A stretch of 64,000 bases of DNA from the NCBI RefSeq assembly GCF_017348835.2, contig NZ_CP071375.1, one strand, 5' to 3'. Shown piece by piece: positions 27,001-30,000 of this stretch; positions within the stretch are counted from its first letter, which is position 1, and every line of letters begins with the position of its first letter. Source of the DNA: Escherichia coli. GTDB taxonomy: Bacteria; Pseudomonadota; Gammaproteobacteria; Enterobacterales; Enterobacteriaceae. The position numbers are program-made.

Positions 27001-30000
27001 GGCTAAGAAATAACCTTCGCCATGTTGTGTCACCAGTAAATCCGCGCTGAGTTTATGGCGTAAACGACGAATTAACACATCGACGGTGCGCAGGTCAGGG
27101 TTTTCCACCCGACGCGCAGAAAGCATACGTAGCAGACGTTCACGGCTGAGAATTTCGCCCGGATTCGTCACAAATGCCACCAACATTTCATACTCTGCGC
27201 GGGTCAGTTTAATCGGCTCGCCATCCCGCTCCAGCGTATGGCGCGACACATTCAGGCAATAACCGGCAAAGCGATAGCAGTTGTCCTGAGTGAGCGGTTG
27301 AGCTTGTCGCGCGAGGTCGATTCGCCAGAGCAGATTTTTTACCCGTACTACCAGTTCGCGCAGTTCCAGCGGTTTGGTGACGTAATCGTCTGCGCCCATT
27401 TCCAGCCCAACAATACGGTCAATCCGATCGCTGCGTCCGGTAACCAGAATAATCCCCACCGTTGAGCGTTCTCGCAGGGCGCGGGTTAACATCAGGCCAT
27501 TTTCATCGGGCAAGTTGATATCCAGCAGAATTAAATCCACCGGCTGATTCTGCATAATTTCCCGTAGCCCGGCACCGCTCGCCGTAACGGAAACGGTATA
27601 CCCCTCCTGAGTGAAGTAGGATTGTAATCGCGCCTGGGTAACCGGCTCATCTTCAACAATAACAATGTGATGTGGCATCAGAGGGTTTTACTCATTCTGT
27701 TCATATCTGTTCATATTCTGCCGTAAGCCATTCATCCTGACCAGTGCCGCTGTTCATATTTGCTCATTAAGATCGCTTCACTAAACCATAATTTTACAGG
27801 GGCTATTATGCGGAAACTCTGGAACGCGCTACGCCGACCCAGTGCTCGTTGGTCGGTACTGGCGCTGGTCGCTATTGGGATTGTGATTGGCATTGCGCTG
27901 ATTGTATTGCCACACGTTGGGATCAAAGTCACCAGCACAACCGAATTTTGTGTCAGTTGCCACAGTATGCAACCGGTGTATGAAGAATATAAACAGTCGG
28001 TGCATTTCCAGAACGCCTCCGGCGTGCGAGCTGAATGCCATGACTGTCATATCCCGCCGGATATTCCAGGCATGGTGAAGCGCAAACTGGAAGCGAGCAA
28101 CGACATTTACCAGACCTTTATTGCCCACTCCATTGATACACCTGAAAAATTCGAAGCCAAACGCGCGGAACTTGCCGAGCGTGAATGGGCGCGAATGAAA
28201 GAAAACAACTCGGCAACCTGCCGCTCCTGCCATAACTACGACGCGATGGATCATGCGAAGCAGCATCCTGAAGCGGCACGTCAGATGAAGGTGGCAGCGA
28301 AAGATAATCAATCCTGCATCGACTGTCATAAAGGTATTGCCCACCAGTTACCGGATATGAGTAGCGGCTTCCGTAAGCAGTTCGATGAGCTGCGCGCCGG
28401 TGCTAATGACAGTGGCGACAGGCTGTACTCTATTGATATTAAGCCGATTTATGCGGCGAAAGGCGATAAAGAAGCCTCTGGTTCTCTGCTGCCTGCCTCG
28501 GAAGTGAAAGTCCTTAAACGTGACGGCGACTGGCTGCAAATTGAAATTACCGGCTGGACAGAAAGCGCCGGACGTCAGCGTGTACTCACCCAATTCCCAG
28601 GTAAACGCATCTTTGTTGCCTCGATTCGTGGTGATGTGCAGCAGCAGGTGAAAACGCTGGAGAAAACCACCGTTGCCGACACCAATACCGAGTGGAGCAA
28701 GTTGCAAGCCACCGCGTGGATGAAGAAAGGTGACATGGTGAACGATATCAAACCGATCTGGGCTTATGCGGATTCGCTGTACAACGGCACCTGTAACCAG
28801 TGCCACGGCGCACCGGAAATCTCTCACTTTGACGCGAACGGTTGGATCGGCACGCTCAACGGCATGATTGGCTTTACCAGCCTCGATAAACGTGAAGAAC
28901 GCACCTTGTTGAAATATCTGCAAATGAATGCGTCTGACACCGCAGGTAAAGCTCACGGCGATAAGAAGGAAGAAAAATAATGAACAATAACGATCTCTTT
29001 CAGGCATCACGTCGGCGTTTTCTGGCACAACTCGGCGGCTTAACTGTCGCCGGGATGCTGGGGCCGTCATTGTTAACGCCGCGCCGTGCGACTGCGGCGC
29101 AAGCGGCGACTGAGGCTGTCATCTCGAAAGAGGGCATTCTTACTGGGTCGCACTGGGGGGCTATCCGCGCGACGATGAAGGATGGTCGCTTTGTGGCGGC
29201 AAAACCATTCGAACTGGATAAATATCCGTCGAAAATGATCGCCGGATTGCCGGACCACGTACACAACGCGGCGCGTATTCGTTATCCGATGGTACGCGTG
29301 GACTGGCTGCGTAAGCGCCATCTGAGCGACACCTCCCAGCGCGGTGATAACCGTTTTGTGCGCGTGAGCTGGGATGAAGCCCTCGACATGTTCTATGAAG
29401 AACTGGAACGCGTACAGAAAACTCACGGGCCGAGTGCCTTGCTGACCGCCAGTGGTTGGCAATCGACGGGGATGTTCCATAACACTTCGGGGATGCTGGC
29501 GAAAGCTATTGCCTTGCATGGTAATAGCGTTGGTACGGGTGGGGATTACTCTACCGGTGCTGCGCAGGTGATCCTGCCGCGCGTGGTTGGCTCAATGGAA
29601 GTGTATGAACAGCAAACCTCCTGGCCGCTGGTATTGCAGAACAGCAAAACCATTGTGCTGTGGGGCTCCGATTTGCTGAAAAACCAGCAAGCGAACTGGT
29701 GGTGCCCGGATCACGATGTTTATGAATATTACGAGCAGTTGAAAGCGAAAGTCGCCGCCGGTGAAATTGAGGTCATCAGCATCGATCCGGTTGTTACATC
29801 CACCCATGAGTATCTGGGGCGCGAGCATGTGAAGCACATTGCGGTTAACCCGCAAACTGACGTGCCGCTGCAACTGGCGCTGGCGCATACGCTGTACAGT
29901 GAAAACCTGTACGACAAAAACTTCCTCGCTAACTACTGTGTGGGTTTTGAGCAGTTCCTGCCGTATCTGCTGGGCGAGAAAGACGGTCAGCCGAAAGATG

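Follow-up and report, generated by a model that had tools for sequence, protein, structure and literature searches.

In the investigated stretch of Escherichia coli DNA (64,000 nucleotides, in the following referred to as the window), we have identified four decamers which, with a probability of about 0.95, constitute the tor boxes, the operators of TorR that are located between torR and the torCAD operon in a textbook arrangement that is already known. This assignment is founded on the presence of three exact copies of the decamer where 0.17 would be expected, their position between torR and torC, their match to K-12, their conservation across genera and the published binding of TorR, and we found no evidence against it. 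Apart from a G to A exchange in the weak box 3, the region has the same architecture as K-12, and the promoter would most likely still be inducible by TMAO, perhaps with altered strength.

The boxes are contained in a 129-bp spacer separating the divergent torR and torCAD, with torS and torT residing nearby (Table 1). All six tor reading frames are of full length with zero internal stops and carry 2-19 substitutions compared to K-12. In case of TorR, only two substitutions are found, S46P and H129L, which are both located outside of the DNA-binding domain. This domain (Pfam Trans_reg_C, 153-225) is identical to K-12 and, like the Response_reg domain (5-113), intact. Of 5426 complete E. coli genomes, 5416 contain a match to the segment 27600-27900, invariably with a torR/torC annotation, and the region 20000-40000 is 100% identical to the pig isolates PE164 and F2_81. 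The torR-torC spacer is without match in 10 or 11 of the 5426 complete genomes and six of its matches fall on records labelled as plasmids, for which deletions of the tor locus or a mis-assignment of replicons are possible explanations. Between torS and torT, the intergenic region (25903-25984) comprises 82 bp, the same length as in K-12, which means that the attB site of HK022 (PMC6814406) is unoccupied in the window. The same study places the translation start of torS at a downstream ATG instead of the annotated GTG, which is found at position 25902 (PMC6814406).

Table 1. Features of the tor locus in the window and differences to K-12 in the torR-torC spacer.
Feature	Position	Strand	Description
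torS	23158-25902	-	TMAO sensor kinase; intact ORF; pathway described in PMC6814406
torT	25985-27013	+	Periplasmic binding protein of the TMAO pathway; intact ORF; pathway described in PMC6814406
torR	26986-27678	-	OmpR-family response regulator, 230 aa; intact ORF; by annotation
tor box 1	27697-27706	+	CTGTTCATAT; exact consensus; same as K-12; distal half of the TorR high-affinity site; sequence as in PMC9239176
tor box 2	27707-27716	+	CTGTTCATAT; abuts box 1; exact consensus; same as K-12; matches box in PMC9239176
Putative torR promoter	27715-27743	-	-35 TGGTCA (27743..27738), 17-bp spacer, -10 CAGAAT (27720..27715)
tor box 3, degenerate	27728-27737	+	CCATTCATCC; 6/10 to consensus; G to A at 27730 compared to CCGTTCATCC in K-12
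tor box 4	27750-27759	+	CTGTTCATAT; exact consensus; same as K-12; promoter-proximal low-affinity site
Putative torC -10	27768-27773	+	TAAGAT; 8 bp past box 4; position and sequence conserved across genera
torC	27808-28980	+	ATG at 27808; intact, collinear with K-12; Pfam NapC/NirT family
torA	28980-31526	+	Intact ORF, collinear with K-12; by annotation
torD	31523-32122	+	Intact ORF, collinear with K-12; by annotation
torCAD operon	27808-32122	+	torC, torA, torD
Difference to K-12	27730		A in window, G in K-12; third position of box 3
Difference to K-12	27794		T in window, C in K-12; downstream of boxes
Difference to K-12	27803		C in window, T in K-12; downstream of boxes

The original prediction had described TorR operator decamers upstream of torC at 27697-27759, comprising three perfect copies, two of them adjacent, and a degenerate one. 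All copies can be read directly at these sites, the given range is bounded precisely by the first base of box 1 and the last base of box 4, and the decamers reside in the torR-torC spacer of E. coli and match the published boxes (PMC9239176). A search of both strands of the 64-kb window located three exact copies of the decamer, all on the plus strand and within 63 bp. In 100 dinucleotide-preserving shuffles, the decamer occurred 0.17 times on average, at most once and hence never three times. Together with the 6/10 match of box 3, these copies form direct repeats in the orientation of torC, with box 1 starting 18 nt past the torR start codon, which ends at 27678. Near-matches elsewhere in the window (with one or two mismatches) are close to chance (67 vs 48.6 expected). 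With respect to box 3, the match of 6/10 is not significant on its own, as a match of at least this quality has a probability of about 0.02 per start, which for the 33 bp separating boxes 2 and 4 amounts to an expectation of about 0.47, and five further decamers of 6/10 are found in the same spacer. We count it as a box because of its homology to box 3 of K-12 and its conservation across genera and not because of its match score. The boxes start at offsets of 0, 10, 31 and 53 bp, corresponding to roughly 0, 1, 3 and 5 helical turns, and due to this proximity to whole turns all four are placed on one face of the helix.

The described arrangement extends beyond E. coli. A scan for the 20-mer spanning boxes 1 and 2, with one genome per species, resulted in 20 loci, 14 of which originate from E. 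coli, E. albertii, E. whittamii, two Salmonella enterica subspecies, four Edwardsiella, three Providencia and two Grimontia. The matches in six non-proteobacterial MAGs (Bacteroidales, Lachnospiraceae, Clostridia and Synergistaceae) have flanks that, as far as shown, lack a tor-like context, and these matches were attributed to chance. The window was aligned with K-12 and 13 loci to yield 15 sequences from five genera, with two redundant E. coli contigs left out. The 20-mer is kept in the torR-torC spacers of Escherichia, Salmonella, Edwardsiella, Providencia and Grimontia, and the repeat is located 111-149 bp upstream of the torC homologue in every aligned case. The boxes stand out as conserved islands in the 15 spacers, together with a CTGACCAGTG block that lies between box 3 and box 4 and with the TAAGAT hexamer past box 4, which in Grimontia is replaced by TACTAT at the same spacing. 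The sequence TTCATAT in box 4 is invariant across the five genera, and the 14 sequences apart from the window show no variation in the core GTTCA of box 3. The promoters from Salmonella, Edwardsiella, Providencia and Grimontia thus share with the window the tandem boxes 1-2, box 3, the TTCATAT of box 4, a TAAGAT-like hexamer and a downstream torC, whereas an A at the third position of box 3 is found in the window only. Conversely, an extra degenerate decamer located past box 2 in P. vermicola (TTATTCACAT) is not present in the window.

A direct comparison with K-12 MG1655 shows a gap-free alignment of the spacer, which measures 129 bp in both cases, with three single-base differences. The two regions have boxes 1, 2 and 4, all box spacings and the flanking genes in common, and they differ at 27730 in box 3, at 27794 and 27803 and in the two substitutions of TorR. 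The comparison with the characterised promoter bears out identity for three boxes and all spacings but not for the sequence of box 3, where the exchange reduces the match to the consensus from 7/10 to 6/10 and abolishes the GTTC core. This change of a single base in the weakest box affects the claim that the region is identical to the reference and not its assignment as tor operator. In the literature, boxes 1, 2 and 4 are defined by the decamer found here and box 3 by CCGTTCATCC; TorR binds the former in EMSA with a Kd of 0.97-3.11 µM, and box 3 alone shows no shift with TorR, its binding being thought to depend on box 4 (PMC9239176). In genomic SELEX, TorR gave a single peak across the E. 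coli genome, which resides in the torR/torC spacer both with and without acetyl phosphate (PMC5934670), and TorR binding and induction by TMAO are known for the sequences of K-12 and Salmonella (PMC9239176; PMC5934670).

A scan of 27600-27900 for consensus sigma-70 promoters and terminators found none, which fits an activator-dependent promoter. Its conserved location suggests that the TAAGAT hexamer would serve as -10 region of torC, with no usable -35. On the opposite strand, the putative torR promoter matches the consensus at 8/12 positions, which is below the threshold of the scan, and predicts a start of torR near 27708, inside box 2. This is in agreement with the notion that boxes 1-2 reportedly cover the torR start. 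A torR promoter in the CTGACCAGTG region would explain the conservation of this block and would place box 3 inside the torR promoter spacer. The boxes also overlap with the predicted torR promoter, at which torR is repressed by its own product, and this second role of boxes 1-2 as autorepression site was omitted in the original prediction. We considered a fifth box at 27760-27769, where the decamer TTGCTCATTA directly follows box 4 and agrees with the consensus at 6/10 positions. It displays no tor-box conservation in Salmonella, Edwardsiella, Providencia and Grimontia, overlaps with the presumed -10 and is thus unlikely to be bound by TorR. At its third base (27762), it contains a common G/A polymorphism that sets apart about 19% of E. 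coli genomes.

In the described signalling pathway, TMAO-bound TorT shifts TorS into its kinase mode, which leads to the phosphorylation of TorR and the activation of torCAD (PMC6814406). The same sequence of events would be expected for the window, with TMAO-bound TorT putting TorS in kinase mode and TorS phosphorylating TorR. The abutting high-affinity boxes 1-2 would be occupied by TorR irrespective of its phosphorylation, and phospho-TorR would cooperatively fill the weak boxes 3 and 4 on the same face of the DNA, which would in turn activate a torC promoter with poor -35 region. Occupancy of boxes 1-2 would also block the torR promoter and thereby result in negative autoregulation. Boxes 1-2 are reported to be of high affinity and to mediate an autorepression of torR that is independent of TMAO, boxes 3-4 are said to be of low affinity and to be filled cooperatively by phospho-TorR, and the phasing between boxes 2 and 3 is described to matter. 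Base substitutions in any single one of the four boxes have reportedly caused a strong reduction of the induction of torC'-lacZ. The system resembles operators of the OmpR/PhoB family, such as the pho boxes, in the use of a winged-helix regulator (Trans_reg_C) and of direct repeats of about 10 bp at whole helical turns, which are found adjacent to a promoter that lacks a good -35. However, whereas the pho-type operator consists of one 11+11 bp box, the tor operator is made up of four decamers arranged 2+1+1, the proximal sites being spaced by 21-22 bp, and, unlike in OmpR/PhoB-family boxes, its distal pair doubles as autorepression site of the divergent regulator gene.

The distribution of box variants was surveyed with a 76-mer equivalent to window positions 27690-27765 in 5415 matching complete E. 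coli genomes. The K-12 form, taken as reference, is found in 4025 genomes (74%), and that of O157:H7 TW14359, which carries a G to A exchange three bases past box 4, in 1012 (19%). In 137 genomes (2.5%), the 76-mer is that of W224N and the type strain ATCC 11775, where a C to T exchange converts box 3 to CTGTTCATCC, and 100 genomes (1.8%) share with the window its exact 76-mer, which carries the G to A exchange in box 3, leaving 141 (2.6%) with other, unclassified 76-mers. At least 5274 of the 5415 genomes hence contain one of four 76-mers, every one with perfect boxes 1, 2 and 4. These three boxes are essentially fixed in E. coli and, among the four classified forms, only the weak box 3 is polymorphic. 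Carriers of the window allele include O145:H28, O169:H41 and O157:H16 and isolates from pig, baboon and poultry. In a single sampled outlier, O166:H15 JNE21-009 (locus L006, 68-186), boxes 1-2 have been reduced to one box by a 10-bp deletion, and the site of high affinity and autorepression should thereby be disrupted.

The statement that the torCAD promoter is confirmed as intact was too strong, since a box mutation relative to a functional reference, which the original prediction itself had named as contrary evidence, is present at 27730, where G is invariant in box 3 of 14 orthologues and where A is confined to 100 of the 5415 genomes. Moreover, sequence alone cannot confirm normal promoter function. 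The exchange could define an attenuated cis-regulatory variant in about 2% of lineages, with a weaker cooperativity of phospho-TorR at boxes 3-4 causing a lower or delayed induction of torCAD. We consider this rather unlikely. The invariance of G at the third box position in boxes 1, 2 and 3 of 14/14 other orthologues, the loss of a consensus match and of the GTTC core, the minority status of the allele and the failure of box 3 to bind TorR on its own even in the reference form (PMC9239176) would all be in line with attenuation. Yet, an A at the equivalent position of box 4 is found in three Providencia and two Grimontia with tor loci that look intact, and TorR-type operators can thus carry this base, and the persistence of the allele across several unrelated serotypes and hosts and the presence of intact tor genes next to it in the window, which does not suggest a decaying locus, speak against attenuation as well. 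The CTGTTCATCC variant, by its occurrence in 137 genomes including the type strain, shows that box 3 tolerates variation. We thus favor a promoter that most likely would still be inducible, since box 3 is weak, cooperatively filled and tolerant of another polymorphism, since box 4 of other genera accommodates an A, and since the allele has persisted in several lineages and resides beside intact tor genes in the window; the effect of the exchange would probably be mild. It is conceivable, although on balance doubtful, that the A allele of box 3 (in about 1.8% of genomes, including O145:H28 and pig-associated lineages) would, as a natural cis-regulatory variant, measurably retune the level of TMAO-induced torCAD expression, its threshold or its cell-to-cell noise via a weaker cooperativity of TorR~P.

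Another alternative, where the decamers would be a chance or slippage-generated repeat without regulatory role, appears extremely improbable. Although two of the copies are directly tandem, as slippage would give, and one of them is missing from a natural E. coli isolate, the excess of exact copies (3 vs 0.17 expected), the preservation of decamer sequence, spacing and place upstream of torC across five genera and the published binding of TorR to the boxes (PMC9239176; PMC5934670) are at odds with such an origin, which is effectively refuted by conservation and binding.

Several features were observed in other parts of the window. A 141-bp tandem repeat (459-935, 3.4 copies, 97% identity) is located inside a gene on the minus strand (297-1190), for which the identical strain PE164 has the annotation tccP2 (Tir-cytoskeleton coupling protein). 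The gene is accompanied by an espV pseudogene (1636-2028), a tRNA-Ser (2123-2210) and a phage tail-fibre fragment (1-170). This region represents the terminal part of a prophage or island with effector genes and marks the strain as EPEC/EHEC-like. Between efeB (ending at 56507) and phoH (starting at 57728), a 100-bp unit is repeated 7.2 times with 96% identity (56525-57249), and since the unit contains REP-like palindromic sequence, it is probably part of a REP/BIME-type array that is unusually long and regular. Finally, a 447-aa reading frame on the minus strand between putP and efeU (50682-52025) is annotated only as 'hypothetical protein' and located next to about 1.2 kb without annotated gene (52026-53214).

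The tor boxes represent textbook direct repeats by which a response regulator activates its target operon and represses its own gene, and the window adds one more copy of this arrangement. The only new detail is the census of natural variation, with the minority alleles of box 3 (G to A in 1.8% and C to T in 2.5% of genomes) and at least one isolate without one of the tandem boxes. These variants offer natural material on the share of the weak site in induction, from which a surprise is not expected.
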